A DNA stretch of 56,925 nucleotides, the filler included, from Sluysia triapertura (lineage: Eukaryota), in assembly GCA_046118255.1 (NCBI GenBank). It is 4 parts of 4 records of this genome, joined end to end, with 100 filler letters (N's around TTAATTAATTAA, not from the genome) between each part and the next. Parts side by side here need not be neighbours in the genome. Positions count along the whole stretch, not along the records: positions 1 to 15,018 come from JBJNIA010241215.1; positions 15,119 to 30,387 come from JBJNIA010232899.1; positions 30,488 to 45,074 come from JBJNIA010254523.1; 1 more part is not named here. One strand, given 5' to 3'. A program made the position numbers and the translations under genes. Under the pieces are notes generated by a model that saw nothing but the letters and a program-made list of their open reading frames with translations, was not told the origin of the DNA and did not search any database. Positions 7,481 through 42,898 of the stretch are shown piece after piece. Numbering within the stretch: position 1 is the stretch's first letter; each line of letters opens with the position of its first letter.

Positions 7481-8060
7481 ATGTCAATATCGTTATTATT
7501 TACTGCTCCATTTATACAACATAATATGTCTGTCGAATGCTTCACATGTAAAAATTACAATGGAACACCTATACCGGATAATTTCATTACCGTCCCTAAT
7601 CGTGACAGCTGTTGGAAGTGGTTCATTGAATTCCACATTGACAGGATTTGTTCAGATATAAAGTGTTGTCACATTTCATCACTCGAAGAGTTCTATATCG
7701 TCCGATATCCACAAAAATAGAAAATATGAGACTTTTGTATGAAGATATCTTTTTAATTGGAAGTTATATTACTAAATGTGTATATACTGAGAGTATTTTT
7801 ATATTATTCTTTGTTCTATTTTATAGTTTCCTAATAAAAAAGTTTTATCTAGTTGGGTTTAATGTATTATTCTTTAAAGGCCCTAAGCCTGGTTTGTTAG
7901 TTTATAAATTTAATAGCTTTTTAACATTGTTAAAATTAAATGTTAAGTGTTGCTTTTTTGTCGAAAGTTTTATGTTTAAATTTAGAAATATAAAATTAAA
8001 TATTAAAGAATATAATTTAATAACTGTTTTGAAGTTTAAACTCCCCATTTACTTCCGCGC
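7481..8060 (+). pseudogene. Diverged member of the small Cys/His (CCCH-related) gene family plus its shared downstream segment
   Basis: ORF contains CWKWFIEFHIDRICSDIKCCHISSLEEFYIVRYP, compared with ...SHRFYEFKNVLRYP in the 9595-10052 gene. Candidate 34-nt GT-AG intron at 7793-7826. The downstream sequence resembles that of the 9.6-10 kb copy. Frameshifted. Confidence 0.5.
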
Positions 8061-8076
8061 TCAATTTGACATTTTT

Positions 8077-8229
8077 GGTGAAATTTTATCAAATTATCAA
8101 AGAACATAAGTTGAACATGTTTGTAGAAGATTAAAATTAACATCACTAGTTTATTTATGGCAAAGAGATCAGAATGAGTTATTAGATACAATGGTTAAAT
8201 GTGACATAAATGCAATAATGCTTAAAATA
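8077..8229 (+). pseudogene. DPH6: Diphthine--ammonia ligase fragment
   Basis: Translates to GEILSNYQRT*VEHVCRRLKLTSLVYLWQRDQNELLDTMVKCDINAIMLK, matching the conserved DPH6 block GAILSxYQRxRVExVCxRLxLxxLxYLWQRxQxxLL. One in-frame stop; no flanking DPH6 exons recognised. Confidence 0.9.
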
Positions 8230-9594
8230 TTAAACAATTATCTAAAAGTATGGATTAAATCCTTATAGTGAAAGAGGTTGAATAAATGGATTAATCATTT
8301 GCAATTATGCAATACTGTTGTGGATGACACAGAACCTTTGGCCAAAGTAAGAAAGAGATCCTTCAAAATATCTTACAACGATCCAATGAAAGAAGCACAA
8401 CTTATAATTGACCAATCAAGATTTTATCAGAAGTATTATTCAATATATATATCGAAAGAATTTTATGAAATAATTTGCGGCTTCTTATTCGACAACCACA
8501 AATTCAAATTCAATCATTTAGAGTTTGAACTCCAAAAATTTAAAATTTTTATCCAAGAAGTCGATTAGAAACGTTTATCATGCAAACAAAATCCGTCTCC
8601 ACATTTTCGACCATCAAAATAACATTTGAATTGGAAGAAACGATTATGAAGTATAAAGTAACAAAAACTGGTTCATCAATTCATCGAAATGTTTGGAATA
8701 AATATGATTTATCACACACGGAATATGTCGGTTATTCACAATCAGTAAAATCAGAATTATCATTAGACTACAGTCACACGTCTCAGAGTATCAGAAAGAA
8801 AATTCATTGTCAAACACTGAATATACGCGTTGAAAAAAATTAATCGAATAAGAAGTAAAATCTGTATTAATGTAACATGATGTATTGAAAGAACTTGTAT
8901 ATATTTTGAAGTATTTTAATCCGGATTTGGATAGTGCCAAATGTGAAATGGGAAGACAATTAGATGAATGAGAAAATTTCAGTAATAATACATTCTCCAA
9001 AATCACTATAGAAACATTACTACTAACAAACAACACTCTTCCATTTGTACTAAACAGATATCAGTCTGATTTATTCGATCAAGAAACAAATGGTCTTACA
9101 AAAGGTGAATTAATTGCAATTATACTAGCAATCATTTTAGCTATCACAGATGTAGGAATAGTATTCTAGTTAATACTTCGTAATTATGGTATATATAGAA
9201 CAATCACTAATATCCAGTATATGCAGCATTCTACTGCTAACTTAGGAAACAAATCTCAAAGTGCATGCAGTGATAAAACATGCCCATCTGAAGTAATACT
9301 ATGAAGACTGGTGTATATTTATTTAGTTTATAGTCATTCAAATTATAATTTGTTGAAATATTATATCTATTTAAGAAGTTCTTCAATAAATTCAATTTAA
9401 ATTCTTTAAGGTTCGTTAATAGCGATTGATTATAATTATATTTTTTTAAATTTATTATAACTAATTTCGAATTCTCAATAACAAATAATAAATAAAAAAT
9501 ATAATAACATTTAACTTTTTTAATTTTAACATTATAAAAATGGGAATTTTTTAAGATATTGTTCAAATTTCTTAGGCTATGACACGAAAGGAGT

Positions 9595-10052
9595 TTAAAG
9601 ATTGTTCTAAAAGAAATCAGACATAAACAATAATTAATAATTACTTTTGGCTCCTCGTATGATTCGGAGGCGAGTGGCACACTGTTACCAATATCGTCAC
9701 TGACTTCAACGTCTGCAATAGATAACTGCTGCAAATTGAAATTGATTCCAAGATTTGACAGAAGTGAATTTATTCTGTCATAATGAATACTGAAATCTGC
9801 TGGATAGCGAAGAACATTTTTGAACTCATAGAATCTGTGGGAATATCGACAATTCTTCCCATAGCTGGAACATTCCCCAGTTTGTGTAGTTTCATACAAA
9901 CAAAGGGCCATCTTGTAGCAATTGTATTCATTAACATAATTCAATGAATTTATCTGCAAAGGTTTGCTGCCACTATAGAAGAATTTAAAACGAACAGCTT
10001 TTGATTTATCATTTGACAAGTTTGTCTTTAATAATGTTACTTTATTTGTCAT
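9595..10052 (-). CDS. Small single-CCCH zinc-finger protein (139 aa if spliced: exons 10052-9645 and 9606-9595)
   Basis: YKMALCLYETTQTGECSSYGKNCRYSH is C-x9-C-x6-C-x3-H with a TIS11/ZFP36-like YKxxLC leader. A phase-0 38-nt GT-AG intron (9644-9607) is followed by NNL-stop. ATG start, no disablements. Confidence 0.7.
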
Positions 10053-10792
10053 GACAAATGAATCGACATCTCTTTAATAACTAATTTGTGAAACACAAGA
10101 AATATATTAACAAAAGTTTCTATAAATGTTAGGTTTAATCTACCAATACGTTTATCTTCTTTTATCATTTTATAGTCCAATGAATTGACTTAAATAAACT
10201 TGAAAATATGACTTTTTCATAATTTTTACAAATTATAATAATTTCTTTCGACACAGATAGATAAAAATAAACTGTTATTTTGTACTTGCACTAATTTAAC
10301 ATAAATTTCATTAGTTTGATAATTCAAAAACTTTAAAATTTTCGGTTATACTATCTAAAAATAAAGTACTATCTAAAACTAAATTTTTGTTTGTAGTTAA
10401 CTTTAGATCAACAAATTTTATCTTTACAGCATTTCAATACATCACTTCCATCTTTAAATATATTATCTTTTATTTGCTTGACGTTAACAGAATAAATAAC
10501 ATGATCATTTTCATAATCTTTTTCACTAAAGTCGATTATAATATTTCTATCAACATATTTGGATGACACATACGGTTTGTTTTATTCATATACATCGTTG
10601 GAATGCAATGACTATAATATCTAAAACAAACTGATTCATTTAATGTAAGCATCAACAAAATTGTTTCATAAAATTTTTAATTTTTTACTACTAATTAAAT
10701 AAGTCACTGTTATGATTTTTAAAAACACTTTTCAAATTACTATTTTTCTTACAAAAATTTTATGATTATTTTTAATTTTGTGCTGTATGTTG

Positions 10793-10841
10793 ATTGGACA
10801 TCCAATCGAATACATAAAGTAGACCTGAATGGATGTCCAAT
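10793..10841. repeat. Short inverted repeat (MITE remnant or hairpin)
   Basis: ATTGGACATCCA (10793-10804) and TGGATGTCCAAT (10830-10841) are exact reverse complements. Confidence 0.55.
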
Positions 10842-11012
10842 ACAATAATTTGAATTAGTGTCTATCATAGGTAGGTAGTAGAGGTGGAATGCAGAATTAG
10901 TTTTAATTAATCTGTCTACCCATGGCAGACAATGAATTAAGTTTAATTTCCAAGTTAATAAGATAATGACAATAAAATGATGATAATGAATACAACAACA
11001 GTAACAATAATA

Positions 11013-11017
<5 letters not shown>

Positions 11018-11078
<61 letters not shown>
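11018..11078. repeat. (AAT)n microsatellite
   Basis: Pure AAT run. Confidence 0.95.
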
Positions 11079-11080
<2 letters not shown>

Positions 11081-11279
11081 ATAAAATAAAGACAAAGAAA
11101 TTACATAAATCTTTTCTTGATGTCTTTTATTCTTACATGTTCTTTTATATTTATTCATTTTAAAATACAAAATTATTTCTTAGACTAAAATTAAATAAAA
11201 TTCTTTTCAATAAAATTTCTAAAATAAAACTCCTTTAGTTATATATGTTTGTGTTTAATAAGTGAACGATGATACAGAG

Positions 11280-11540
11280 TTATAGATATTGAGGGAATTC
11301 TGTTTTGGTTGAATGTTAAAATGGTTTTGAAGTGTGGATATAATGTTTTTCGGTGATATTAGAAACTGATGTTAAATGATTGTGAATTTGAAATGTTTTG
11401 CATTTCTTTTTGAGATGTGTATTTGATAGTGTAAGATGTAAATTGTAATTCTGATGTTATGAAGTTGTGGATAAAAATGTTTTGAATGAAATTTAATGTG
11501 GGTTAATGGTTTTGAATGTAGCGTGGTTTTGGTGACAACA
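11280..11540 (-). repeat. A/C-rich dispersed repeat, copy 1 (unknown family)
   Basis: Minus strand reads SKHFYPQLHNIRITI, similar to SKHLNLQSHNIQTIM (15.8 kb, +) and PYLQFHNIQITI (20.9 kb, -). Strong strand skew. Confidence 0.5.
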
Positions 11541-12828: not shown

Positions 12829-12900
12829 CAGTGGTGTCAAACCTTTTTGCTTTACGGGCCGCATGATTTGCCTCCGCGGGTCGCCACTTTGACACCACTG
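12829..12900. mobile_element. 72-bp hAT (Charlie-like) MITE
   Basis: TIRs CAGTGGTGTCAAA ... TTTGACACCACTG, with a perfect 8-bp TSD CTCTAGAT at 12821-12828 and 12901-12908. Confidence 0.95.
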
Positions 12901-16656: not shown

Positions 16657-17885
16657 CATTTTTAATTTTTAAAAAATTTTATCTGCTCACTAAACCAATA
16701 ATTACCACTATCAATGTTGACATTTTGGTCACTATGTACAAATTCTCATCAACATTGATAGTGGCTTTAACTGTCAATCAAATTGTTTTTGGCGATTATT
16801 ACTGGTTGTCCAACCCAAGTGATTCTGCTTATTATTTTTATATCTCTGGTTGGACAACCAATCCAGACAAAGTAAAAAAAATACTATTCACTGTAAAATT
16901 TGTTATTAGTGTTAGCAAAAACTTTTATGTGAAAATAAAATAAGAAAAGAATTTGCAAAAAAATTATTGCTAAAAAAATTTTCAAGATAAAATTAAAGAA
17001 ATGACTGCAAATTTTCAATGTGAACTTATTAGTGAAGATATATTAATTTTAAATGATAATGAGATAAATACATTTGAAATATAGCTATTAAATTCAATTT
17101 CCGAATACGATCGTGTCATTAATCATAAAGCTGTTGATAGAAATAATTTAAAGTATATATTTCCTTTACAAACAATTAAATAAGGTTATCATCATGTCAG
17201 TACTAAACATAACAGTAGTTTTACTTGCATTAAACGACAGACTAATGTAATTGTAAAAAAATGAAACAGAATGTAAAACTAAAGACTTCAGATATGTTAT
17301 TGAGACACAGAACAATGCGATCGAAACCTACAGAATTAATGAATTTAAATACAATATCGAAGAAATAATTGACTGTTTCAAAACAGCATTTAAACCCCAT
17401 GAATATAAAATGGGAACAATTTGTGGGGTTGCTTACGCAAAACAAACATAGATTAGGTTTCAGTGGAAAAATAAACTGAATGGATTTGGTGAAGATAAAT
17501 CTTTCAGATTTGGAGTTGAAACTAATGATTATCATTCCCATGGCACTAACGTTACATTTTACGATAAATCATTATTCTCTTGCAAATTCAGATATGAGGT
17601 TTTAGCACAGTCAAATTTGTTTTTTATGATGATAGATGTTTTGGTAAACTACAATTGAATGTTGTAACAGATTCGTTAAATTTAGTTTACTTGTATTTGA
17701 GTAAGAGCTCCACTTACTCTTTCAAAGATCTTAATATTGATAATGAGTCTAAGAATGTGGAATCTATTATAATTAGTGATGATGCGTATAGTTTATCCTA
17801 AAGTACACATATTCAACCTCTAATTCTTGTCAACACTGTGGCAGATGTAAATAAGCCTATAATCGATACAAAACATTGCCAATCA

Positions 17886-18303
17886 ATGTCACATAATTAT
17901 GATATATCAAATAGTAAAGTGGATAACAAGAATCTTTCTCAAAGTTCTCACTACAAACCAAACGAAGATAATGCGAAACCAGCAAGTAATTATCCTAGTC
18001 TAATGCACCTTTATCATAATACAATCAAACGTATACCAATTTCTAATCGGCGTATTGGAATAGCATTGTGTCCTTATGGAAGCGATTTCAATGGTAATTG
18101 TGCAAAATCTGGAAGAAAGTGTCTACATGCTCACACTATTGGTCAAATGACGGATCTATATTTACATCAAGATAACTTGGACCATCTTTCCAGACTCACA
18201 AGTTTAATGCGATCGGTCAGCATTCCTGTTCAGTCGAATAATACCAACCTTAGTGACTTTACAAACCTTAATTTTATTTATTTTTATTGTAGTGATAACT
18301 TAA
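17886..18303 (+). CDS. Small single-CCCH zinc-finger protein, paralog (candidate intron 18253-18292)
   Basis: IALCPYGSDFNGNCAKSGRKCLHAH is C-x9-C-x6-C-x3-H. The downstream HLSRLTSLMRSVSI resembles HYDRINSLLSNLGI of the 9.6-10 kb copy. A 40-nt GT-AG candidate intron is followed by a micro-exon and stop. The start codon is uncertain (first ATG at 17886). Confidence 0.62.
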
Positions 18304-19477: not shown

Positions 19478-19735
19478 TCTACTCATAATATTGTAAGGCA
19501 GTTTCGAATCCAAACAAAAGATTACCAAATTATACAGACAAAATTGTTGAAGTCTCTAAAAGCAAAAAACTACATGAAATGCCGCATCACATATATTCCG
19601 TCCCCGATGATGCTTATAGGATTATGCTACAAGAACAAGAAAATCGATCTATCTTAGGCATTTGTGAATCAGTTGCCAGTAAAACTAAAGATGCTAAAAA
19701 GTTATTTAGTACCTTTCCTCAGTAGCTACATCAAT
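19478..19735 (+). pseudogene. Myosin II heavy chain motor-domain fragment
   Basis: NPNKRLPNYTDKIVEVSKSKKLHEMPHHIYSVPDDAYRIMLQEQENRSILGICESVASKTKDAKK matches NPYKxLPIY...GKKRHEMPPHIY...AYRxMLQDRExQSILxTGESGAGKTENTKK. The P-loop is destroyed and a frameshift follows. Confidence 0.92.
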
Positions 19736-20298
19736 GAGGAAAGAAAAAACAACGACTGTTGGATATGTGAATTCTGAGTTGAAAAAATAAAACAAATCTT
19801 ATGCAAATTAACAATATCTTTCTTAAAAACTTCAATTATTTAAATGGTACATTTATTTGTCTGAAAGAAATAGTTGCTAAACTTGATAGATATTCATACA
19901 ACCCAAAAGCAACAGAAACAACAGAAACATCTAATCTAACTCTAGATTTTGTACAAGTAAGATCATCCACATAGATTATCATAGTGCTTCGATTATGTTC
20001 ACCAAAATGTTAAAAATTAATAATAAAATATTTAAAATATCAAAATCAAAATATATAAAACAGTTATTTACAAAATTCAAATAATACACAATAAAATATT
20101 TAAAATATAATCAAATAATATAGGTTATAATGTCATTAAATGTAATTTGATGGTTTTACAAAGTCGATCACGACCATGACAATAATTTATAAATGTTTAC
20201 AATATGGAAGACTTGAATATATCTTGGAAATAATACAAAAACACAAATAATACAAATAATACAAAAACTTGGAAACTAAAACTGATATACCATTAAGG

Positions 20299-20455
20299 TA
20301 CAATACGTTTTACAGAATGCATATTAATAAGATATATAATAGTTTATATACCGTTATATACCAGAGAACGATAAATTACTAAAAGATTATGAAATATTTA
20401 AGAACAAGACAAAATTCTTTCTGCTTTAGAAATATTATAGTGAATGATTATTTTA
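20299..20455 (+). mobile_element. 3' end remnant of a CR1/L2-group LINE
   Basis: KLLKDYEIFKNKTKFFLL*KY resembles the L2/Crack ORF2 C-terminus; homologous to 42899-43075. Confidence 0.5.
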
Positions 20456-21000: not shown

Positions 21001-21739
21001 TATTAATTTTTTAATAAAACTTTAGTGGTTGTCAAGGTTGGCCACTACACTTAGTAACTTATATCCTGTTAAAGAGTTAGTCTTAAGAAGTTTATTTACT
21101 GACTTATTATTGGACATTATAGTAAAAGCGTCTCGAGATTTGTTTGTATCACATTCGTCATGAAGTTTCGGTAAAATTTGGTACAATTGTTCAACAACAT
21201 ATTTACCTCTATTATCCACTAAGACAATGTTATCAACATAGGTATATTAGCATAATGAAGACACTGAGAAAAGTTGCAAAGTGTACATGGCTTTCCTATT
21301 AGTAAGGGTTTGAGATAGATACAATGAATTAATAGTGAACGTCTAAGAATTTTCATCATATGATTCATTCTTAAGCAATAATGCTTGTTCGAGACCATAT
21401 CGTAATGCTTTTCTAGTGTTTCTCATATCTTCTTCGATTTCAGCTAAACATGTGGGACTCGTGATTCGGATAAACAGTAGCAAAATTAAGAAAAGTAATC
21501 TTAAAACAGACAGTAATTTTATCCAGAATATTGTATTTCTACTATGCGTTGAAATCAGCATTATATTGGCTGATCTGATTCAATTCAGGAAGAAACTGAT
21601 GTTACATCTCAATTATCTATATTATCGGATGAAGATTCGGATGTCTGGAACAACTTTTTTTGTAAACCAGAGCGTTTCCAAGTACTTTGTAGATTTTCAT
21701 GCATTAAAGTAACATAATCAGGAATTTCTAAGTACTGTG

Positions 21740-24300
21740 AAGTTGGTGGTATCCACTCTAAGTCAACTGGCATATTTTTATGTCAACCATACATTAAATA
21801 AAAAGGTGTGAAGTTAGTAGCAGGATGTACAGAACTACTGTAAGCAAACAAACATGGAGCAATGCATAAATCCCAATAGGTTTGTCTATCATTTACAAAC
21901 TATTGTAGCATGTTAGTTAAAGTTCTATTAAATCTCTCGACGAGACCGACAATTTGTGGTGCCTTTGCTTTAACATCTGTATTTTTCTTCTGCGACAAAC
22001 AGCATAGTCATTACACCATTTCTTTATATCTTCTTCTACACCATCCCAATAATATTTATCTTTTATTCTTGACAATGTTTTTCTATGGGAAAGGTGACCA
22101 CCTAATTGTCCATCGTGAAATTGAATGATAAGTGGAGTAACTAAGGATTTTGGAATTAAAGTCCTCCTTTCATCTTTAGAATTCTTAAATCTTAAAACTC
22201 CATCTCTTAATGTCAATTTCTCAGCTAACTTTGGATTAATATCTCCTTTAATGAGTTGCTCTAACGCAAGCGAAATTTCTTCACCGTCACGTTGATGTTT
22301 GATTATTTCTTTTGGATCTACAACCTTACCCGATATATTCATGATGTCTATAAATTTTATATTTCCTTGTTCGTCGACGTTTGTTAATCTCGACATACAG
22401 TCTGCACCGTTATTTAATGTACCGGGTTTATAGATTATATCAAGAATAAAATTCGGATAACCACCTATTTAATCAACTTACTTCGTCTCTATAATTATAC
22501 AATGAAGTTAATGGCTTATGGTCGATATATAAAAATACTTTTTGTCCTAATAAATAATGACGAAATAATTTACAGGCGTATAATTCATTTATGCTTGTTC
22601 AATCATCTACTTGAGTATGCTATTACTCCTTCTACGTTATCTCTGTCTTTTTGACCTAGTTTTGCGCCTACTATTGCGTCGGTTGTTAATGTCAGGAAAG
22701 AATAAAATTGGTGAAGTTGTTAACTTTTCTTTTAATTATTATTTGCTGTAGTTTGTGTATCTGTTCATTTAAATTCGACATCTTTTTTAATTAACATTCT
22801 TAACGGATATGCGAAATATCTAACAAATCTATGGTAATAATTGGCTAAACTCAAGAAACTTTGTACTTGTTTAACATTATTATGTTGCGAAAATTTAACT
22901 ACTTTCTCAATATTCCGCTGATTTAGCTTTATTCAATCCTTCGGTAAAAATTCTACTTGTTCTTCTGCCCATAGATATTTGGTAGATTTAACTTTTAACC
23001 CAGAAACTTGTTCTTAAAATATTTTCTGTTATATTATAGTATCATCAATATATACCATCACATTCTCACAACCTGAAAAAACGAAATTCATACAACTTTG
23101 GAATGTTGCTGGTGCTCCTGTTAAACCGAAGAGCATTTTTTGCATTCATATAATTCATCTCCACAAGTAAGTGCAGTTTTGTGTTTATCCTTTACTGCTA
23201 TTTCTATCTGCCAGTAACCACTCTGCAAATCTAATTTAGTAAAGAATCTTGCGTTTCCTAGCATTTCATCAATTCTTGATAACGGAGAAACATCTCTTCT
23301 AGTAGTTTAATTCAAATCTCTAAAATCTATACAAAATTGCATAGTATCATCTTTATTTTTCACTAATAGAACTGGAGAAGATAATGGGGAAAGCTTGGTC
23401 TTATTATACCTGCACTTTTCATAGTTTCTATTTGTTCCTTCATTTCCTTTTGATTGATAGTGGAATTCTGTAAGGTTTCTTTCGGATAACGTTTTATTCT
23501 GTCAATGATATTTCGTGTTTTATTATTACTGAATCTCCTATATCATATTTATTACGAGAAATAGCCTGAGAGTATTTTCTTATTACGGCATATAATTTTT
23601 TTATCTGTTTTCTCTTTAAATTAATTTTAATATCCTCGTAATTCTCATCAATATTTCTCTGTAATTTAATTGTGTTATTTTTATGTTTTCTTCAGTTACT
23701 ACACTGATATGAGATTCAACTTTATAGTTTACAACTCATCACTAATCTTCTTCAGTATAATTATGAATTCTTATTGGAATTCTTCCTTCGCAAATATTAC
23801 AAATAGAATCCGCTATTCCTATATTTAACTTTTCCTGATTAATTTCGATGCTATCAACATTATTGATCCTGTTAACAAACTATTTGTCCTTCTTGAATAA
23901 TATATTCTACCCAACTTAATAACCAAAACGGTTTATTTACAATAACATCGTTATCATCTCCTGTACGATTTGTATAATTGTCCATTAGTTTAGCCTTGTC
24001 AAAATCTAATATGACACCTTCAAGATGTGACAACACATCCATACCCAAAAACATGTCTTCTGGACAATTTCTCATAACTCTCAATTTTATTTCAAGCTTA
24101 TTTTGTCATAATTCATAAAATACTTTTATTACTCTTACTATTTTATCGCATCTCTTGTCTCACCTGCAAAATTGGAAACGTGGTCAGCTAGATTCTTAAG
24201 TTCTTAACTTGTTAGGAAAGCTCCGGTATCGATTATTGCTGAAATAATTCGACCATTAGTTCTAATTTTGACCACTTGGCGTTTCGCATGATAATAATTG
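21740..24300 (-). pseudogene. pol: pol (protease, reverse transcriptase, RNase H, integrase), disrupted
   Basis: Protease AIIDTGA (~24230); RT motifs SPVLLVKNKD, FCIDFRDLN, KLDLQSGYWQI, FGLTGAPATFQ and YIDD (23052-23041); ADCMSRL (~22400); integrase HDGQLGGH...WCNDYAVC, GLVERFNRTL and TPFYLMYG. Confidence 0.93.
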
Positions 24301-24399
24301 TTGTTTGCAAAAATCATATAAACTAAGTTCTTTAGGAACTGGATATAAATGATTTTTATCGTCTTTAGGTTCTTTATTTTCTTCAATATCACCTATGTT

Positions 24400-25821
24400 T
24401 CCTTCCTACTACAGAAAACATTTGAGAAGCGGTCAAAGCTATTACTTTAATAATAATATAAATTCCTATTAGACTAAAACAACTACCTAGTACTAAAAGA
24501 ACTACCCCAAAATTGTTTTAATGTATTTTGAGCAGCTTTCTTAAAATGATTCGATCCTAATAACAGTTCAAAATTCACTTGATCATCTTTTTCTACTATA
24601 ATTTTATCTACAATATCTGCTAAAACCTTAAATCGCTTAATTGGGAATAAAATTTCATACCATGAGGCTTTTATATCATCGTTAGTATATTCTACATTCA
24701 GATGCCATGAAATTGGAGCAGCACATGGGTTTTGGTTCTAAACATGTCTTTAATTTTCCGTAAGTCATAGGTAATTCATTGGTGCACTCTGATTCTTGTC
24801 ACATTTTCACTTCGATTTCTTACATTAGTCTGTCAAATACGACTTCTAAAGGTAAAAGTGGTGTAACTAGATTAGGATTAGTAATCGCAATTGCTAACTT
24901 AGTTCGTAAAATTTCTTTATTTAGTTGGCAATCTTTTATTATTATTGCTTGATAAACTTTTTCTGACATTAATCCTAAATGATAATAAAAGTCAATATTA
25001 TTGTTGAAGTATGTATTCAATCCCCTTTTCTGCTTGTGGAATTACATGTTCAGACAAATAAATACCTTGGTAATTAGTTTCCGTTACTTCCTTACCACAC
25101 CTAATGATTAAGTTTTTCTTTAATCTTTTTCTTTCTAAATTTTCTTATTTGTTTCTATTTGTTTCTTATTTAATTCCTCATTGGTAACTCATAATCATTT
25201 TGGAATACAAATCTTGATACAAGATTAAACTTAATTTGTTTTAGAAATATCAAAGAACACTGAAACTTATTTAATTCCTAGAGGAATATAGACTCTCCTG
25301 CGTCACAACTGGTTTGATATATTTTAAAAAATGAACGTGAAATCATATCAAAACTTTATTTGAAGGATTTTAAACTTATTACATATGTTTTTTGTGTGAC
25401 AACATTATTATTATTATTATTTTACCTTCGTATTCTATAGAACCTCATTCTGCAGTCCTTACATTATAAATTATTTTTTAATTATCGTTTATCTCATTAA
25501 TTAAACTTATATAACCATTTCAAATGCATTCCTACAATTACTGGGTGATATTTTAAAAGGTTTGAAAACACTTTATATATCTATAATTTACGAGTGACTA
25601 TGGTGTCCACAACTGATCGTTTTACCGTACATTCTCTTACTAGAGTTGTTATTAAATTACCTCCTTGATAAACATTTAATACTTTACTATTAGGTCTATT
25701 AGAAAATCCTCTGTGTCGAGCAGTGAAAATTCGCTACCTATTTGAGGTCTACTGGAATCAAATGCTTTAATTCCATTTGTCTTATACCAAACATAGCAAG
25801 TAAAATAATTACGAATAACAT
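24400..25821 (-). pseudogene. env: env: class III fusion glycoprotein-like (chuvirus G / herpesvirus gB-related), disrupted
   Basis: Hydrophobic signal MLFVIILLAMFG, then IKAFDSSRPQIGSEFSLLD, CGHHSHS (25611-25591), CQLNKEILRTKLAIAITNP, CTNELPMTYGKLKTCLEPK (~24786-24730) and a C-terminal hydrophobic segment (~24500-24430). These motifs occur in the same order in chuvirus-like glycoproteins (recalled from memory, not searched). Confidence 0.75.
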
Positions 25822-27760
25822 GTCATTAATAGAATTACTTAGTCTAAGTAATATATTATTTAATAGGTTATTATTTTCTAATATATCTAATTTATCTCTT
25901 TTTTTAATTATACTTTCGAAACCACCTTGAGTTTTTCTCCATGAAATTTATTATCTAATATCTAATTTCTCATTAGTAAGAAATTTTGCTTTATCACATT
26001 GGAACAATATATAGGCAATAATAATGTTGAGCTTTAATTATTACTAATTTATATTGTCCCGTATCTATATACTCGCGTACATCCTTATCTCTATACTTCT
26101 ACAATCATTGCGTTATTTGAATAATTGCACTTCTACAATCCTTGATCTTAGGTAATAATACTTTATACTTATCAAGATTATTAAACTTATGCGACAAAGA
26201 TGCATAAATTAAACTTGCTGCACCTAATTCAATTTTTTGCTATCGTAAATAATTTTCGTTAAATCTACGGTATTTCTATTAGCATAATTAGGAGTTACTA
26301 ATTGATCAATGTATTCTTCTTTTCTTGTTCTATCTGTTTCCTTATTCAATGTTTCAACATGTGGGTTGTCATTTAAATCTATTATGTAATTAGGTTGTTC
26401 ATTATCTCTATCAATAGTAATATTATTCTTATCTTTATTATCATTTGTAACTATACTTGGATGGAGAAAGCAATCCATATTATTTTTATTAACTTAATTG
26501 GGAGTAGAATAATTAAGAGGTACATCATAAACAATAGTTACTTTAATATATCATTGTGAATTCCAAGAGGGTAACCATAATCATTTAAAAATTCATTGGG
26601 CGCCAGATTTCTATCATTAAAATATAAGTTGACAACCGTAGTATTAGAGTCATTCATTTTAATTAAATCTATAATTTCTTTAACTCTCGTAGTGACAGGC
26701 AGTTCCATTACTGCATTTATTGAATCATTAATTAATTCATTTTTTCTTTCTATTAATGCTATTTTCTTTAGTTTTTTTCTTTCTTTAATTTTACGAGAAC
26801 TTTAATTTCGATGACTTCTATATCTAGTCGGTCCTTTATTTGTAGTCATCTCTAATGTGTTTGTTTGTATAACTCTCATCGTTGGCAGATACTATTATTG
26901 GTTCCAGTTAATTTTGCTTTCTAGACTAACTTCGTCATTTACATTCGAATTACTATCTTCATTTGTATTGAATTTTCATATTCATTGATTGTTGAATTTG
27001 TTTCGAGATTTTCACTTGTTATTGATTCCACTTCTATTAAGTTGTTTGTTTCTATATTGAATTCGGTACTATTATCAGTTTCCTCAGTGGTAATCGAATC
27101 AGTGTCGGTATTCTCATCTGATGTTAAACTCAAATTGTTACTTTTTTAATATTTAATTCAAGTGTATTTTTCTGTTTCTGTAACTCCTTTTCTTTCAACG
27201 CTTGTTTTTTTTAAATATTTAAGATAATACTCGTACATATAATTTATAAATGCGTCTTTTTCTTCTTTTTGTCTATTATATCTATCTTTTTGCATCATCA
27301 TCGTCACCATCTAACTTTATTCTAGAAAATTCATTGATAAATCCATCATTATAATGTCTTTTAGAGCACACTCTATCTTCTATAATTTTCTTCTTCAAAT
27401 TCATAATCTCCGTGTAATTATAATAAGTGTGATCATAATTATTGTAACCCTTGCTCGTGTTCTTACTGTCGATAAACCTTATTTTTCTATCTGAACTTGT
27501 CCCTCTCGTACAATCTTGTATTTTAGTAAGATTTTGGTTGAAAGTGTCTGATCTTAACTTCCTACAATTTCTAACATAGTGACCTTGCTTACCACAGTTA
27601 CTACATATTACATTTGATTGAGTCTTACAGTTATTATTAATATCAAATTTAGCAGGAGTCTTATTTCTAATGTCACTACTATTATTTTTCTATCAAAATA
27701 TTCACTAACGCAATGCATGTTTTTGTTCTTAACCATTGAAGCCTTATCGGTAAAGACACC
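25822..27760 (-). pseudogene. gag-position ORF with CCHC zinc knuckle, disrupted
   Basis: CSNCGKQGHYVRNC (C-x2-C-x4-H-x4-C) at ~27605-27565, followed by acidic and unrecognised segments broken by stops and frameshifts. Confidence 0.7.
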
Positions 27761-29170
27761 TTATTAGTTTGTAAAGAATGATTTTTTTTATCCTTTTTCT
27801 TATCCTTAGTAAATTCAATTAGACTAGGTGTATCAATTGTGAAGGCTTAAAAACTTAAATGTAAAGGTATATAAACGTATTCGAATATCGGAACTTAATA
27901 ACTTAAATTCAGTTGGGTTAAAAATTCAAATCGGAATCAATTATGTTAAACTTAAATCAAGAAAACTTAATAAAATTCAATTAAACTTGGAAAGGATCAA
28001 AATCTTATGAAACATAATCGGGAAGCTTTTATCAATAAACTTAAACTTAATACCAATAGAATAAACTTATAATCAAACTTAAAACTTATGTAACATCAAT
28101 CTTATTATCTAAATTAACGTAACTTAGTAGGATAATGTTAAAAATCGCACAAATCTCTTACAATACTTAACGAAATATCGAAAAACTTAAACTTTTACTT
28201 ATCAAATCAAGAAAACTTATAAACAAAATGATACTTATAAAATTCAAAATGATACTTTAACTCGATAAAATCGTACAAAGTCGTAATTATAAACTTAACT
28301 TTCATTAAAATTAGGGGTATAACTTACTTAAAACTTATGTAAAATCATATAATCAACTGAAACTTAATGAAATTCTTATAAAATAACTATTAAACTTATA
28401 TAACTTAATGTCAAACTTATAAAAATCGTACAAAACTAATTAAATTAGCGCAAAAACTTAATAAACTTATAAATGTTTACTTAAATGAAAAACTTATAAA
28501 AATCAACTATAACTTATCAAATACTTAAGGGGTAATCAAAATATTAATTTATAATAGCTTAAACTTAACGGAAACCTAACTTATTTAACAAAATATTCGA
28601 TAAACTTAAACTTATAACATAAGAAATTCAAAATTTAATACTTAAACTCTTTAAAATTCACAATTCGGAGGCTTAAACTTAATCTTAACTTATTACATAT
28701 CCAAATAACAATATAATTCAAACTGATAACCTTAAACTTAACAAATTCTTATCAAAATAACTTGGAAAACAACTTAAAAAATATAAACCTTATAGAAATT
28801 CAAACTTAATGCATAACTTATTACTTAAAACTGTCAAAGATTCAAATGAAAATATCAAAATATGACTTATATTGTCGAAAATGTAACTCAAAGAATCAAA
28901 ATTTAATCTTATTTTTAAAAGTATGAAAACTTGAAAATTATCAAACATTTTCAAACATTACCAAAACTTCTCAATTGGCACAATCGAAACTTAAAATTCA
29001 ACACTTTAATTCATTTAATACTGTCTAAATGAAGTTTAACTTAAACATTGTTAACACTTAAATTAACTTTATAATGTCTAAATACTCAAAAAATTCACCC
29101 CTGAATGATTTATTTATCATCTAAACTCAAATTATCTCAACAATTTAACGTTATGTCTTAACTTATGCTG

Positions 29171-29188
29171 GTCCCAATTCTGGAACCA
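29171..29188 (-). promoter_or_regulatory. Primer binding site of the LTR element
   Basis: Minus strand TGGTTCCAGAATTGGGAC starts with TGG, complementary to a tRNA CCA end. The implied ...GGAACCA tRNA end is Glu-like (inference). It sits at the boundary between the LTR and the leader. Confidence 0.7.
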
Positions 29189-29189
29189 A

Positions 29190-29917
29190 ATTTTCTTAAA
29201 TTTAAAACCTACGGCAAAATATAAATTAAGCAGGGTTCGGTTATAGTAAACGACTTATATCGTAAAGAAGTCGTCTCTATAACTATTCGCACTTAAAACT
29301 TAATTAAAAGAAGTTTATCTGTGAGGGTTCAATCAATTTGCTTCTTAAAAATAATAATTAAAAACCACAAAACTTTTTAATAGCACTAAATAGCTTATAA
29401 AACAGGCAATAAAGATTAGACAATTTAAAATTAAAATTCGATAGAATATTTAATTTATTATTTGATTTTAATTACAAAATTCCCTCAGCAGATCGGAGCA
29501 AAAACTAATTTACAAAAATATTTTACGTAAAAATTTATTATTTTTATCTTCTCTAGGAAGGTAAAAACTCCTTCCAAAAATAACATACCGTATTCATGGA
29601 AATAAAAAATTTGCTCGAAGAATAGTCCAAAGATGCTCAGATATAATTGCTAAAAAATTGATACCAATGAAATAGAAACGATCGCAGAAATTAAATAACT
29701 AAAACAAATAGCAATTAAATAAATGGCAAAATAGTAAAATTGATTCTAGTTTATATATTAGTCATCAACCAGCAGAAAGTGATAGAATGTTCTAGAATGT
29801 TCTTTTCTATTTTTAATAAGGAATTTTCTTTTTTAGAAATTAAGTTATTTTATTGAAAAATGGTGTTAGTGCAATGCGGTAAATTGTTTTTGAATTTTTA
29901 ATAGGTTTGTGATGACA
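29190..29917 (-). repeat. 5' LTR (approximate)
   Basis: Lies upstream of the PBS, starts TGTCATCACA on the minus strand and contains AGAACATTCTAGAACATTCT. Its 5' part resembles the sequence from 48385 onward. Confidence 0.6.
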
Positions 29918-30487: not shown

Positions 30488-33400
30488 CCCCGTCTAACAA
30501 TTTCATTTTCAATATATTCAATTATACTACTTGGCACTTTTTAGGCCTTTTACCCCAACAATATGTTAAGAAGAATTAAAGAAAAAGAAAGAAAAATCGT
30601 GAAAGTTTAACAAGAATTTATGTATTTTTTTAAATATTCTTAAATATTTTACATTTAATTAATGTTAATAATAATAGCAACATTATTGTTATTATTATTA
30701 TTAACATTGAACTTCATAATGTTATACGACAATAAAGATTTAGTCACATAATATATCAAAAGAATATAAACATAAACCAATTGATTATTATCCGTCAAGC
30801 CTACCAAAGGCCAGCACTATAATGCGAAAAGATATAATCGAATTGTTCCTAGATGCGGCAGTACAATACTTTAGTTCAATATCAAAATTTAATGCTTCGG
30901 ATGATTTTACGAATTATTATTACAAGTTTATTCTACTTCGAATTAAAGAGTCAACAGTTGAAAATGTCATCAACACTAAATCAAGGGATAGATAAATTGA
31001 TGAGTAAAGTGAATCTATACAGACTAATGAACTATACTCTTTGTGGTAAGATATTTTATGTAAGTTTTTGTTCTATATCTTTTCTGATTTATATTTTAGT
31101 CAACCAAATTAAAGAATGGATCAATAAAGAGCAACTGGCCTTAGTGTCAGAAGAAAAATCAATAAGAGAAAACTTTATGCTAAAATTTAAAATTAACTTT
31201 TCATATAATAAATGTATTGTAATTAGAACTTTTATATTTATTTTAGAAATTAAAATGTCAATGTTAAATCTATTGTTTCTAAAAACATAATGTATCATTA
31301 CATGCCTTTTGGTAACTTTGAAGGTCAAATTGTACCTATATACGACTCATAACCTAATAACATTTCACTCCGTCATTCGTCTGATTCTTGTATAAAATTT
31401 TATTATTAACGCAATTGAATTACTTCCTAGATCCGAACTTAAGAATCTAAAGTCTAACATAAACTCCTTATCTAAAACAGCTCGATTCTGTCTCTATGAT
31501 GCCGAATTATTAAGGACATATCTTGTTAAAGATCCAAAAATCTACAAGTTAACATTTCAAATTTTTAAAATCTTTAAGTTAATATTACAACCAAAAAAAT
31601 AAATTTTCCAAATTGGTGTCTAGAGTTTACCTCCACAGTATGTTAATAGTATTGCAGATTGTTATTTTAATGTGAGAAGTAATTTAAGTAAAAATAGATT
31701 GAGTAGAGTAAAAGTGATGGTTAATAATAAATCAGATTTCTATGTTTTGTACCTAATAAGGTTTGACAAACTGTACTATGTGTGTGTCGGATTAATTCTC
31801 AAAGAATGTTGCAGTGATATGTGTGAGAAAATGTTTAATCACAAAATTGGAATTTATTGGATGCTGCGAAAATATAAAAAGGAAAACTTAAAAATTTTAT
31901 TACACAACGACAATACAACAATAATAATTAGTGATGCGAATGAGTAAATCAAATGATTTGATTTCCAAGAGCTTAATTTTGAGGTGAATAATTATTGAGA
32001 TTAAATAAGAGAATTATTGAAAAATTTATATTTGATGTAGTGAATACTTAAATAATTGAGATTCTTTTTAAATTTGTATTTATTTAAATAATTTAATAAT
32101 TTTCAAAGACGCAACAAACTATCCATGAAAATATTTTTTGTTCACTTGCATGCCATCATAAATTGAGAAATAATCACAAAATCGATATAAATATTTTCGT
32201 AAATTTAAAAATAATCGTAAAAAAATAAATACTTTTTTGAAAAGTAATCATAAAAATAAACATAAAATGAACATAAATACTTTTTGAAAAATATTTCAGG
32301 TAACAATAAAAATTTATGTAAATGCAAATTTAAATTGATGACGATTTTTATCTTCCTTCGACAACGTTTCGGACGATTTCTCATTCTAAATTCGTCATTA
32401 CATCATTACTTTATGCTATATTAAGATGTCATCCAAATCATGATTCATGTATTCATTTTTTTAAAAACCAATTTGGCACCTCCTGTTTTTACTAAGCATT
32501 GAGTCATTTTGGCCAGATCATGTCTTCATACCAATTTTAACTAAATCTTCCAAAGAGAAAAACACATTACAATTACATTTGTATCTAGAAACATTCGATC
32601 AAAATATTCTCGAACAGCTGTTTCGATACGTGTTTAATTTACTTGTTTCACATATATTTCACTATTTGTTACGTAATTCTCAAATATAGTTAGAACATAA
32701 ATTTTGGGAAATTGATGTATACTAAACATCAATAAACACATTTTACCACAAAGTCCGCAATCTTTACTATGTTGTGTCTTTTTTACTTTTATTTTAAATT
32801 ATCAAATTATAACCCAATAACTAAACAAATTCTGAAACTCAGTATAATCTTTACACTGTCACAATTATACAACAAAAAGTTCTTTTACAATAATGCATTT
32901 CTAATATGTATAAAATCAACTGTAATTTAAAAACAACATGCCTTCAATATTTACTTTTATTATCAAATTCAAAGTTAAAAATTTTAATTACAAAACTCTA
33001 AATATTCTAAAATTAATAACAGGGTTGACAGAACATAAATTAATAAATGTTGACACCTATTAATAACAATTAAAAATAACAAAAAAGTATAACACAAGTT
33101 ACTAACCTTGATGAATTCCATTACTATTTATTTTTAATCAATTGCTAAACCTCTATTTCACTGTTTTAACATCTTGTAATCTTAACATCACTGAATATCA
33201 TAAGCAGAACACAACGAATGTAATAATGGAACAGAGTGATACGATGTACGTTGACTTATTCTTAGTTTCTACACTCGTTTTTATTAATACTCTCATAAAT
33301 ATTTAATTGTTTATCTTCATTTTTATGGTATTTATTTATTTTTTAATTATGAAATAAAATTGCGTCTTAGTATATTCCATAAAAAGGATAGTAAGATTGA

Positions 33401-35723: not shown

Positions 35724-36024
35724 TTCAAGACTCTTTTATTCACAAATCCAACGACTGGCCCTAACAGGTAATCCCAGTACGTTGGTGAACTCACGTAAAA
35801 CCGTCTCTTTATTCTATTAATATACTTTAAATATTTTCCACAGTTTATATATTTTTATTATTTTAATTGAATACAAATGTGAATAAGTTTAAAATCTGTA
35901 ATAGTGAATATATCAATTGTTAATTTATTGTTTAGTTTATCTTTTAATTGTACCTTTAAATATAAATGTTAAATTTGAATTTATTGAGTTGTCAGGAATC
36001 GGTAATCTAACAATAAAATAATAT

Positions 36025-36206
36025 NNNNNNNNNNNNNNNNNNNNNNNNNNNNNNNNNNNNNNNNNNNNNNNNNNNNNNNNNNNNNNNNNNNNNNNNNNNN
36101 NNNNNNNNNNNNNNNNNNNNNNNNNNNNNNNNNNNNNNNNNNNNNNNNNNNNNNNNNNNNNNNNNNNNNNNNNNNNNNNNNNNNNNNNNNNNNNNNNNNN
36201 NNNNNN
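36025..36206. other. Assembly gap
   Basis: N-run. Confidence 0.95.
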
Positions 36207-36302
36207 GTTAAAAATCTTCGGAAAATTAATATTTTAAATTAATTAATTTATTATTATGGTTCCTTATTTTATTTGAATATGTGATGAAAATAATAATTTC
36301 AG

Positions 36303-37455
36303 ATGATTATCAACGAAACCTTATCAGAAAATTGCGTATGGCACCGATCTCGACAATCAAACGGTTATATGAAATTAATACAACTTAGCACGTTGTTGGT
36401 TCCAACATTTAACCTATCATATTTATCAACCAATTCAATTTATTCCAATTATATTACCAAATCCAATTGGGCATTCATATTATCACCTCAGAAGTTATCT
36501 CGAGATATCAACAACGAGTCGAGATCGAATTTAAAATTGAATATTAATAATTTTTTAAATAGTAGTACAAATTTGAAATTAGTTTTCAGACTTTATGATA
36601 AATGGCGACAGTCTGTTATACCCAAAATATGTTACGATATCGATCAAAATATTCGTAAATTGCAACAATTTAAACAAAACATCTTCAATCGGATTGGTCG
36701 AATTTGTCGTAAAATTTTAACCAATCAAAATTACTCTATTTCAACAAATGATATTAATAAAAATAATCAGAAAATGAATCTAATTCATCTTTTCAATAGT
36801 TATTTTTATCATCAACAATTGGTAACACGCTATTGGTTAGTATATTTTGATTTAATCCAATTAAAAATGAGTACTCACAATTTTAATTTATATGAAAATA
36901 AAATATTATTTAAGTACATAAATACATTTCCCATTATAATTCAGGTTCCTATATAACATCTATTATTCGAATTTGCAGCTGGCAGTAAAGTATAACTACT
37001 TTCATCGTTCACATAAATTCCAATTAAAGATCGACAATATCAATAAATCGTACAAAGAAATAATTCTTAAATTCCATCGACTTCGTCATCGTATATGTCA
37101 GTTATTAACACCGGAATCTGTCGAAGTTTGTTTCTGTTTCGGTAATATACAATTCAGTCAAATTAATTGTGCTAATTTTAATTCAACAATTACTAAATTA
37201 AGCAATCAGCAATCAAAATCGATTTATTTCGGATTTAAAAATTTTGATTGGTTCATATCAAACAGTGTTCCTGATTGGTTCAAAATGCCAACTAATACAG
37301 AAATCAGTCGTGCCGTGGAAATTAATCGATTGTATGATGCTAATAAAAAATCGATTATTCAATTGCGTCAAGTGTATATTACGAAAGAATTAATGAATGG
37401 AAATCGCATCCACAACATGGCTAGTGATGCTTGTAAAGCCAGTGTTTGCTTGTAA
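36303..37455 (+). CDS. Uncharacterised host protein, last two exons (36303-36944, 36979-37455); further 5' exons may lie in or before the gap
   Basis: Two long open frames joined in frame by a phase-0 34-nt GT-AG intron (36945-36978). A TTTCAG acceptor immediately precedes 36303. No disablements; family not recognised. Confidence 0.75.

Positions 37456-38112: not shown

Positions 38113-38171
<59 letters not shown>

Positions 38172-40380: not shown

Positions 40381-40384
<4 letters not shown>

Positions 40385-40430
<46 letters not shown>
40385..40430. repeat. (AAT)n microsatellite
   Basis: Pure AAT run. Confidence 0.95.
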
Positions 40431-40433
<3 letters not shown>

Positions 40434-42061
40434 TTGTTAATATTTATCACTTTAAAATATTAAAGTATGATGAATATTTTGCAGATGATTGATTTGGCGA
40501 GTGTTTATTTTCTGAATATCAAATCAGAATTGTAGAACATTTTGTTGAATGAGAATATCCCATTTGATGAAACGATAACAATGATTATTTAGAAAATATG
40601 GAAAACAATTTGTTTTAAAATATAAATAAACAATGAAAATAATAAACAATGGGTTTAATCGTTTAGTTTTCACCATAATGTAAGATTGAAGTATAAATAG
40701 ACTCTTATTTCAACAAAATTCAATTCGACGTTGTACTAATTGAAATTAAATGAAACAATATCAATAACGATTAGTGCAAATGTTTCAAAGATCAAAATAA
40801 TTAAATTTAGTTTTATATTTATTTAATTAATTAAATATTAATTGTATTGTTAAAAAGTGTAAATATCAATTAAATAATATATCAAATATTCGAAAATTTA
40901 TTAATAAAGGATCAGCTAAACTTATTGTTCATTCATTGATTTTAACAATGGCTTATTGTACTCAATTTCATATAGAAAAGTGAAAAATTACACTTAGTAA
41001 TTAATCAAGCAGCAAAACTAATTCTCCTCCAAGTTGGAAGAACATCTCATGTAACACCTTATATCATAAGGAATTTCATTGGTTGCCAATAAAAGCAAGA
41101 ATAGAATTCAAAATCATGACAATAATTTACAAATGCGCTTACATTACGGAAGTTCTGGATATCTTTTAGAAATAATAAAAAATCCTTGGAAATGAAGATG
41201 AATATTTCATTGAGACATAATAATTGTGGTGGCCAACTCAATATTTTAATAATGTACAATAAAATAACTTTTCAGAACATTTCACAATTCTTAATACTTT
41301 CTAACATATACTTAAAAATTAATTCAAAACATTGCAAATTTAATTCAACATATTGCTCATGAAACCACATTCCATAACGCTTTACCTATTATACTATTAA
41401 AACCTTTTATATTTTACTTCTTTTAGATCCGTTAAAATCATTTTCATATCTCCAAACATTTTAAATCGCCAGCGATATTAATAAGACAAATGATGTTTCA
41501 ACGAATTATTAAACCCAAAATTCAGAAACTTAGTTTATCTAAAAAAAATTTATCTGTTTGATAAAATATATGTTTACTATTCATTTAGTAATAATTGTAC
41601 TATGGAGAAAATTTTGAAAGATGAATTCAACGAAGTTAGGAAAGTAATATTTATTAAAAGAAATTGTTATCCTGCTTTGTTAAAAGATATAACGAAATTG
41701 ATGCAAACGAAATTTAATATCAATGATGAGCATTTTAAAACTTGCCTATTCAAAATTATAACATATAATTTAATGAGTATTCATTTGACTTGTGTGGATT
41801 ATAATCTTGTCCGTTATTTAATATCATCATTGGACATAAGACATCGTCAGTGTTCAGAAAGCAAATTAAAAACATTATCTATTAATAAATTAATACTTTG
41901 TCATGTTAATACTTGTGGATTAGCATATAAGTGAGATGTTCAAAACATTAGTAGAAGAAATTCGATGACAGTATTTTTTCCAACTAAATTTAAACTATTT
42001 AGTTCAATTCCTGTTCGTACCTTGAAGTATAGAATGACTAAAGAAAATAAAATTATAGATA

Positions 42062-42183
42062 CACCTATCCCCCGATTTATACGGTAGATACGTTCCTGAG
42101 AAAAACGTAAAAAAACTTATTTGGAAAAACGATAAAAACAAAAAAAACTTATTTGGAAAACCGTGTAAATCGGGGGATAGGTG
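42062..42183. mobile_element. 122-bp Tc1/mariner-superfamily MITE
   Basis: TIRs CACCTATCCCCCGATTTATACGG ... CCGTGTAAATCGGGGGATAGGTG, flanked by TA on both sides. The internal motif AAAAAAACTTATTTGGAAAA occurs twice. Confidence 0.92.
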
Positions 42184-42256
42184 TATTTCTATCGATATAA
42201 TTTTAACATTTCGTAAATTAGCTATTGCAAATATAGTAGATATCCATTCATTAGTT

Positions 42257-42610
42257 ATGACCAACGAAATGAAATCATTAGAGACATTGCCAAACGATCA
42301 TTCAAAAGTTGACTGATTTAAGTCGTTGAACAATATTAACAAAATTCTACAAGTTGCTCTCTATCCCTATATGCCCACTCCGATCGGTATATGTTACAAA
42401 TACGGCAAAAACTGCGTTTACGGCCAAAATATTTTAGAATTCCGTGATGTTCATATTATCATATTTATGAACATCAACTTTAGGAGTCGAAACTTGCTTG
42501 CAGAATCTAGTTTTCAATGACGAAAACAATGAAATGGTAATACTTGTATATTTTTACATGAATTTTAATAATCTAAATCATTTTTATTTCTTATATTTTT
42601 GTAGAATTAG
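42257..42610 (+). pseudogene. Decayed paralog of the single-CCCH gene
   Basis: MTNEMKSLETLPNDHSKVD*FKSLNNIN...ALYPYMPTPIGICYKYGKNCVYGQNILEF aligns with MTNKVTLLKTNLSNDKSKAVRFK...ALCLYETTQTGECSSYGKNCRYSHRFYEF. GT-AG intron at 42537-42604, then N-stop. Similarity continues to ~42840. Confidence 0.75.
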
Positions 42611-42898
42611 TCATGAACATCCTGAGTGGCATAATCGGAAAATAATGAAACAATTAATAAATATAAATTTGTTGAAATTACATTTTGTAGAAATAAATAA
42701 AGTTAGCTCTTACTTTTTATCAATAATTTTTGAAAGAAATAATTTAAACTTTTTTGTAAAATTCTTAAATAAATATAAATTTAACACTATCTTTCAAGTA
42801 TTTCCCATATTTTTATTTAAAATTAAATTAATTCTCTCGTAAATAGATTATAAAATACATATTGTAATATTTAATAAAGAATTAATCACAGCAACATT

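Follow-up and report, generated by a model that had tools for sequence, protein, structure and literature searches.

Single CCCH-finger genes in the genome of Sluysia triapertura and their possible carriage by small non-autonomous DNA elements

The finger genes

This report concerns a family of tiny genes, each coding for a single CCCH zinc finger, in the genome of the eukaryote Sluysia triapertura (assembly GCA_046118255.1), and the small units of DNA that may carry them. The stretch that was analysed, hereafter the window, comprises 56,925 nucleotides, filler included, from four records joined end to end; its GC content is about 25% and (AAT)n runs are numerous. Four loci that a preliminary description had grouped as one dispersed family are here named A (9595-10052, minus strand), B (17886-18303, plus), C (42257-42610, plus) and D (7481-7834, plus). 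What is new here is that C lies inside a 1,677-bp segment with TGT...ACA ends and an 8-bp duplication, which splits a repeat; the spacing of the finger was already known. The features are collected in Table 1.

The finger-gene family comprising A, B and C is almost certainly real: 0 of 2000 shuffles reach the alignment scores of A-B (71), A-C (106) or B-C (62), and tblastn recovers A-C with an expectation value (E) of 4e-7 and B-C with an E of 0.007. The description of A and B as two intact-looking genes is upheld in both open reading frames (ORFs) and coordinates, and C is indeed a clear pseudogene, homologous to A and B but interrupted by a stop at codon 20 and altered in two of the four zinc ligands. 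A six-frame scan finds the full CCCH pattern at only two loci of the window, A and B, as C-x9-C-x6-C-x3-H at 9902-9837 and 18069-18134, respectively, and a profile of A+B+C retrieves no fourth copy from the window. The predicted products are 125-139 amino acids (aa) in length. Their best Pfam match is zf-CCCH_UNK (PF25427), with E 3e-5 for A and 6e-4 for B, though the scores of 24.3 and 20.1 bits fall below the cut-off of 31.1 bits. The spacing had been ascribed to all three copies, in degenerate form in the pseudogene, and called non-canonical; it is present in A and B, C has only two of the ligands left, and the spacing falls inside the published definition of the CCCH class, C-X4-15-C-X4-6-C-X3-H (PMC2478707; here and below, published work is cited from the available portions of each paper), and equals that of Unkempt finger 3. 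A and B thus belong within the class by spacing, whereas D does not.

A conserved helix-like block had likewise been attributed to the first three copies. It is found in A and B but is largely absent from C; by hydrophobic moment the block 3' of the finger ranks 6th of 126 (A) and 2nd of 112 (B) among 11-mers. Fold predictions are poor (predicted local distance difference test, pLDDT, 35 and 44), and their only recurring feature is a helix after the finger. A and B are about 24% identical over the finger region, and despite this divergence both retain the four ligands, an open frame, the helix and the terminal intron layout. We lean towards the view that some copies make a protein, whereas RNA binding by the predicted product appears evenly balanced. 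Weighing against the latter, B lacks aromatic residues kept by A at what we take to be base-stacking positions.

Searches for relatives in protein and contig collections returned none, 1.84 billion proteins being covered by one of them. Three of these searches offered 6, 3 and 2 candidates, none of which was scored, pattern searches gave 140 and 62 matches, none confirmed, and 47 further loci compared by blast showed no match to the units described below. The family corresponds neither to ORF1 of a LINE (long interspersed nuclear element) or DIRS element nor to a conserved single-copy gene, judging from Pfam, the multicopy contigs and the protein search.

Near the 3' end of each of the four loci there is a short GT-AG candidate intron, as had been claimed, with lengths of 38 (A), 40 (B), 68 (C) and 34 nt (D), but a single shared position is not confirmed. 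The phase is 0 in A and 1 in B, a difference that counts against the interpretation developed below. Exons have a GC fraction of 0.32-0.35, against 0.15-0.20 in the candidate introns, which are 53-65% T. In random segments of 150 nt a comparable GT-AG candidate with a stop behind it turns up 92 times in 3000, or 247 times in 3000 when no stop is required, and together with the contrast in GC and T this indicates that the layout of exon, short intron and stop exceeds chance. The donor of B's candidate intron (GTGACT) is weak, and the frames of A and B also continue unspliced, to 271 and 152 aa.

Insertion of unit C into a repeat

The gene at C is enclosed by junctions that read, in order, ATAATAAT, TGT...ACA (1,677 bp) and ATAATAAT, that is, a unit with an 8-bp target duplication, whose ends form an inverted repeat for 3 bp only. 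The repeat split by this unit resembles a LINE 3' tail; Pfam gave no match for it. Elsewhere in the window the repeat is intact and can be read as an 'empty site': in self-comparison the pieces adjoin at 20175-20455 and stand 1.8 kb apart around C, and an alignment with one long gap has offsets of 20917 and 22602, which gives 1,685 extra bases, or 1,677 + 8. When an 8-bp duplication is assumed, the right flank agrees with the empty site at 18 of 30 positions, as against 4-12 of 30 for 12 other lengths; the left flank agrees at 26 of 40. Among random junction pairs, TG..CA ends combined with an 8-bp duplication were seen in 1 of 40,001, and the duplication alone in 470. On the other side of the scale, TGT...ACA pairs with an 8-bp repeat, 1-2.5 kb apart, occur three times in the window, so that such ends prove nothing alone. 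From the sequence, then, C was very probably inserted by transposition.

Upstream of the gene, unit C shares with A a promoter-like block (42022-42051 in C, 10151-10180 in A), whose likeness is reached in 6 of 500 shuffles. The earlier proposal of spread at the DNA level, as cargo of an unclassified mobile element, is directly supported at C, where there is a target duplication and where the likely promoter and the intron candidate have been kept; for A and B the ends are putative. At 31623-31637 (minus), upstream of short ORFs, there is a segment like the left end of unit C with 3 mismatches in 15, which could mark another unit.

It is distinctly improbable that the unit is a solo long terminal repeat (LTR), or a fragment of some larger element, virus-like or giant, with the finger gene as an accessory. 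TG...CA ends without inverted repeats are indeed compatible with LTRs, the TGTNR pattern of Gypsy termini (PMC2836005) holds at both ends of C, and the atlas look-alikes of the proteins, all below 0.9, include giant-virus CCCH clusters at 0.84-0.86, which are leads only. The duplication, however, is 8 bp rather than the 3-5 bp quoted for LTR retroelements, and a 5-bp reading reduces the flank agreement from 18/30 to 7/30. Moreover, an RNA cycle would remove an intron on the sense strand, no paired copy of the unit occurs in the window, including on the flanks of the Gypsy-like element at 21300-27850, and no match was obtained in viral contigs or PHROGs.

Probable units around A and B

Left-end hairpins and end-alignment tests make it probable that units related to that of C also surround A and B, their ends being less certain than those of C. 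Inverted repeats are situated about 750 bp upstream of A and about 1,080 bp upstream of B, that of A starting 4 bases after a TGT. Only two close TTGG-N4-CCAA pairs exist among 17 matches of the motif, and these are at the left ends of A and B. The alignment of the A and B left ends is reached by 13 of 1000 random 100-mers, and that of the A and C right ends by 12 of 1000.

Several observations weigh against extending the case of C to the other two loci: 1) Insertion is proven at C only. 2) The left end of C aligns with those of A and B at levels reached by 130 and 91 of 1000 random 100-mers, and the right end of B with those of A and C at 107 and 82 of 1000, none of which is significant. 3) The right-end candidates of A conflict, as 9312 aligns with the end of C and has no duplication, whereas 9351 has a 6-bp duplication. 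4) The 6-bp duplications lie 244 (A) and 243 (B) bases after the stops, neither is 8 bp long, and duplications of this length arise in random segments at rates of 2407/20,000 for A and 412/20,000 for B. 5) The paired motif was equalled in 1 of 100 shuffles, a test that is partly circular because the motif was defined from A and B. 6) The upstream ORFs of units A, B and C are not visibly related. A further left-end-like match at 21049 was dropped, as it lies inside a reading frame of the Gypsy-like element.

Copy number and coding constraint

Contigs from three sequencing runs (X1, X2 and X3), none recorded as RNA, cover 7300-10900. Run X1 is possibly the source of the window itself; its summed contig depth (113-3849) is not a copy number and was not used as one. 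On 7400-10250 there are 944 aligned X1 contigs, covering all 30 bins, of which 79 are at least 99% alike to the window, 147 are 95-99%, 308 are 90-95% and 410 are below 90%. As 718 of the 944 are thus less than 95% alike, this stretch is multicopy. One difference inside A's finger is common to up to 31 contigs, and 44 contigs depart from A at 10071 into letters resembling the upstream sequence of C (18/20 by eye). We infer tens of divergent copies or more. Among the 15 of 20 X1 contig joints listed, none skips A's candidate intron, and contigs cannot demonstrate absence. Runs X2 and X3 contribute 11 and 7 short contigs on 7400-10250, mostly of low depth (2-4), which are uninformative on other species. 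Some of them equal the window and others are diverged copies of A, a pattern that fits trace DNA of the same organism.

With so much of the region multicopy, a host family of small CCCH regulators spread by segmental duplication, C having been caught once by an unrelated element, has to be weighed; we consider it rather unlikely. Large duplications would give what is seen over the entire 7400-10250, D and the broken gene at ~8270-9300 included, A and B are without clear target duplications, and the codon-position bias described next is compatible with a host function. Such an origin is harder to reconcile with the end-like hairpins that A and B share 750-1,080 bp upstream, with the alignment of A's trailer to that of C up to the C junction, and with the unrelated flanks outside the units.

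In exon 1 of A, 6 of the 7 differences listed from X1 contigs are at third positions and 4 are silent (P 0.007), although the differences at A were drawn from 40 listed of 297, which weakens the case. Over 33 finger codons, the differences between A and C number 10 at first, 13 at second and 24 at third positions (24 of 47 at third); the corresponding counts are 14, 13 and 21 for A and B, and 14, 14 and 21 for B and C. These patterns partly show that the gene was under coding constraint while the copies diverged, and bear on the alternative of passive hitch-hiking, whereby a Pack-type element took up a CCCH exon that is now functionless and the codon bias has survived from the donor. Other isolated host fragments do occur in the window (myosin II head, SF3B1), C and D are broken, and of the 7 differences listed for D, 6 are replacements. 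Yet A and B, about 24% alike, have kept ligands, frame, helix and intron layout, and the third-position bias lies between A and its close copies; we therefore regard hitch-hiking as improbable.

Locus D

The grouping of D as a more diverged copy of the finger family is not confirmed. Its scores are reached by 102 of 2000 shuffles against A, 1042 against B and 1759 against C; there is no tblastn or blastp match to A, B or C in the finger, no CCCH pattern and no Pfam match. Its last exon ends at 7834, not at 7830 as first given. The frame stops at 7720, and a downstream frame extends to the intron candidate. In X1, two contigs carry a one-base insertion near 7712 and one a 14-base deletion at 7728, which means that the frame of other copies of D differs here, and the replacement changes noted above are as expected for a decaying copy. 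The 3' trailer of D (7919-8021) resembles that of A weakly (34 of 500 shuffles), and the sequence of a single X1 contig passes from 9459 to 7989, no more than 3 bases off the register of the D-A trailer alignment. On these resemblances D may represent a remote member of this class of units. A candidate unit around it (6138-8091, with an 8-bp repeat) was set aside as within chance.

Other features of the window

Table 1. Positions of the finger genes, their candidate introns and the units proposed around them
Feature	Position	Strand	Remarks
Gene D	7481..7834	+	exon, candidate intron of 34 nt (7793-7826), very short terminal exon; frame disrupted near 7712; CCCH finger absent
Unit A (inferred)	9312..10844	-	1,533 bp; alternative right end 9351, 6-bp duplication
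Gene A, candidate intron	9607..9644	-	38 nt, phase 0; followed by terminal exon 9606-9595 of 3 codons + stop
Gene A, exon 1	9645..10052	-	136 aa; lead-in YKMAL, finger 9902-9837, linker, amphipathic helix
Unit A, upstream block	10151..10180	-	contains TATAAA, likely promoter; common to C 42022-42051
Unit A, likely left end	10793..10844	-	TGT, then 12-bp inverted repeat with paired TTGG-N4-CCAA
Unit B, likely left end	16803..16860	+	13-bp inverted repeat, paired TTGG-N4-CCAA; candidate right end 18546 (6-bp duplication)
Unit B, broken upstream reading frame	17257..17655	+	no family match
Gene B, exon 1	17886..18252	+	122 codons; finger 18069-18134, amphipathic helix
Gene B, candidate intron	18253..18292	+	40 nt, phase 1; last exon 18293-18303
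Intact copy of split repeat ('empty site')	20168..20454	+	alignment, self-comparison
Repeat split by unit C, left part	41108..41224	+	right part 42902-43072
Unit C	41225..42901	+	1,677 bp; TGT...ACA ends, flanked by ATAATAAT at 41217-41224 and 42902-42909
Unit C, upstream ORF	41602..41934	+	110 aa; no relative found
Miniature element	42059..42186	.	128 bp, 27-bp arms; nested between C promoter block and ATG
Pseudogene C	42257..42610	+	stop at codon 20, 2/4 zinc ligands changed; candidate intron 42537-42604

Between D and A lies a broken multicopy gene (8272-9301, plus) with a hydrophobic segment at ~9100-9166 and no family match, other copies of which carry indels at 8243-8888. The host fragments mentioned above are an isolated broken myosin II head (19489-19760, plus; best match to the animal smooth/non-muscle class, E 5e-18), with no further exons seen, and an isolated SF3B1 fragment (45906-46046, plus; E 1.6e-8) with an internal 6-residue deletion. 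The myosin match makes an animal source most likely. Decayed elements abound in the region. The decayed Gypsy-like element (~21300-27850, minus) encodes a zinc knuckle, reverse transcriptase (RT), RNase H and an integrase zinc finger, and no LTR pair was found for it; weak matches to viral fusion glycoproteins (E 0.003 and 0.074) lie between zinc knuckle and RT, an unusual order, and a long TAAGTT-rich stretch (27850-29400, minus) lies upstream of its gag. Further features include a 72-bp hAT-like miniature element at 12829-12900, whose 13-bp arms begin with CAG and whose 8-bp duplication is perfect, two overlapping ORFs of 219 and 171 aa at 36297-37452 (plus) that have no counterpart in Pfam, a segment overlapping these ORFs at 35918-37036 that has TGT...ACA ends and an 8-bp repeat and may be due to chance, and a weak mariner-like transposase remnant at 54117-54665 (plus; HTH_48, E 0.077).

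A possible mechanism and its significance

Whether the family is made up of non-autonomous DNA-transposon cassettes of 1.5-1.7 kb that lack terminal inverted repeats (TIRs) and carry a constrained gene for a single finger of predicted RNA-binding function is, in our view, an even matter. The history of such cassettes might have run as follows: 1) A single finger would have been captured from a host CCCH gene, most simply finger 3 of Unkempt, into a small element. 2) The element would move as DNA together with the promoter block and the intron candidate, as is seen at C and supposed for A and B, a staggered cut giving rise to the 8-bp duplication. 3) A DDE transposase or integrase coded elsewhere, placed in trans because none lies in the unit, would have as its substrate the TG...CA ends together with the TTGG-N4-CCAA pairs close to the left end. 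4) Coding constraint, of which the codon positions give partial evidence, would have persisted while the copies diverged, single copies such as C and D then decaying. 5) The gene would be expressed with a short terminal intron; its product would bind RNA through the finger, with added avidity from the amphipathic helix in a dimer or in contact with a partner, and would benefit the element by favouring its own transcripts or by competing with host CCCH regulators.

The fifth step, with its RNA binding, helix-based avidity and benefit to the element, is put forward tentatively and is the most doubtful part. One CCCH finger alone is thought too weak for RNA binding. A dimer or a partner contact is proposed for this reason, and the Pan3 dimer provides a precedent (PMC4158885). 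It is unlikely, if one goes further still, that the family represents an undescribed class of animal DNA cassettes (TGT...ACA ends, 8-bp duplications, no TIRs, a variable first gene) in tens to hundreds of copies, in which a domesticated Unkempt-type finger acts as an RNA-level anti-silencing or decoy protein.

Most known examples of non-autonomous DNA elements that carry genes, and of silencing suppressors encoded by elements, come from plants and fungi. Were the cassette interpretation true, an animal cassette with a constrained RNA-binding finger, and with ends and a duplication fitting no superfamily that was checked, would provide an instance, open to test, in which an element acts on host RNA control; its product would offer a small single-finger protein for studying how one CCCH finger gains useful affinity. 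If the genes are only a host family or a hitch-hiker, they amount to an ordinary lineage-specific expansion.

Comparison with known systems

Among CCCH proteins, Unkempt combines six fingers in tandem with a RING domain (PMC4358403). Its finger 3 (PDB: 5ELH) has the same x9/x6/x3 spacing, A aligns to residues 94-129 without gaps at 20.2 bits, and the only PDB match of B is Unkempt (E 0.73). Unlike Unkempt, the present genes have one finger per locus in 125-139 aa, with no other finger in six frames, and are multicopy and probably mobile. The preliminary description had taken TIS11 for comparison and so missed the finger of equal spacing. Finger 1 and linker of TIS11d (PDB: 1RGO) do score slightly above Unkempt with A, at 22.1 bits, with two one-residue gaps, the likeness lying in the residues that lead into A's finger and in the 12 that follow its His. 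The second finger of TIS11/ZFP36 is absent here, B has no match to it, and the tandem C-x8-C-x5-C-x3-H arrangement is not found. With the A+B+C profile, TIS11d is matched at E 0.0047 and Unkempt at 0.008. TIS11d scores slightly higher for A but needs gaps and leaves B unmatched; of the two candidate donors of the finger, Unkempt finger 3 would be the simpler. In Pan3 a single N-terminal CCCH finger with ligands Cys14, Cys23, Cys30 and His34, and hence an x6 second gap, binds RNA as a dimer (PMC4158885); this large single-copy pseudokinase has no sequence match to the finger genes and serves as an analogy only.

Among mobile elements, 8-bp duplications are described for Zisupton, Dileera and hAT, Kyakuja lacks TIRs and has CA..TG ends and 7-bp duplications, and these KDZ elements (Zisupton/Dileera/Kyakuja) carry cargo genes thought to counter silencing (PMC12730594). 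Unit C shares the 8-bp duplication but has neither the TIRs of Zisupton nor the CA..TG ends of Kyakuja, units A-C are without transposase, and their cargo is different. Ginger elements have TGT...ACA ends, TIRs of 40-270 bp and 4-5-bp duplications, and their genes can hold introns (PMC2836005). TGTNR is present at both ends of unit C, but instead of long TIRs and a 4-5-bp duplication there is a 3-bp match and 8 bp. IS481EU, with duplications of about 4/15/25 bp (PMC10045372), and PlavakaA, with one of 2 bp (PMC12730594), likewise have TGT...ACA ends like those of unit C and duplication lengths unlike its own. In the available portions of their published descriptions, none of the superfamilies compared combines TGT...ACA ends with an 8-bp duplication and no TIRs; in that of the Repbase overview (PMC4455052) we found no terminal table. 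No paper on such a family was found within the limited literature searched.

Two other classes of element were set aside. LINE or DIRS ORF1 is contradicted by the lack of RT in units A-C and by the presence of the intron candidate and stop trailer. Helitrons make no duplication and have a 3' hairpin before CTRR; here a duplication is present, and the scan gave one hairpin site only, at ~52200.

Further parallels come from plants, where VANDAL21 encodes a silencing suppressor, VANC21, and non-autonomous DNA elements move pieces of host genes (PMC8616336). VANC21 acts on DNA methylation, whereas the predicted ligand here is RNA. Pack-MULE and Pack-CACTA are likewise non-autonomous DNA elements of plants that move host gene pieces. 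In Pack-MULEs long TIRs surround the captured host pieces, and such TIRs are absent from the present units. The units fail each family tested, yet they appear to work like a Pack-type or KDZ-type cargo element.

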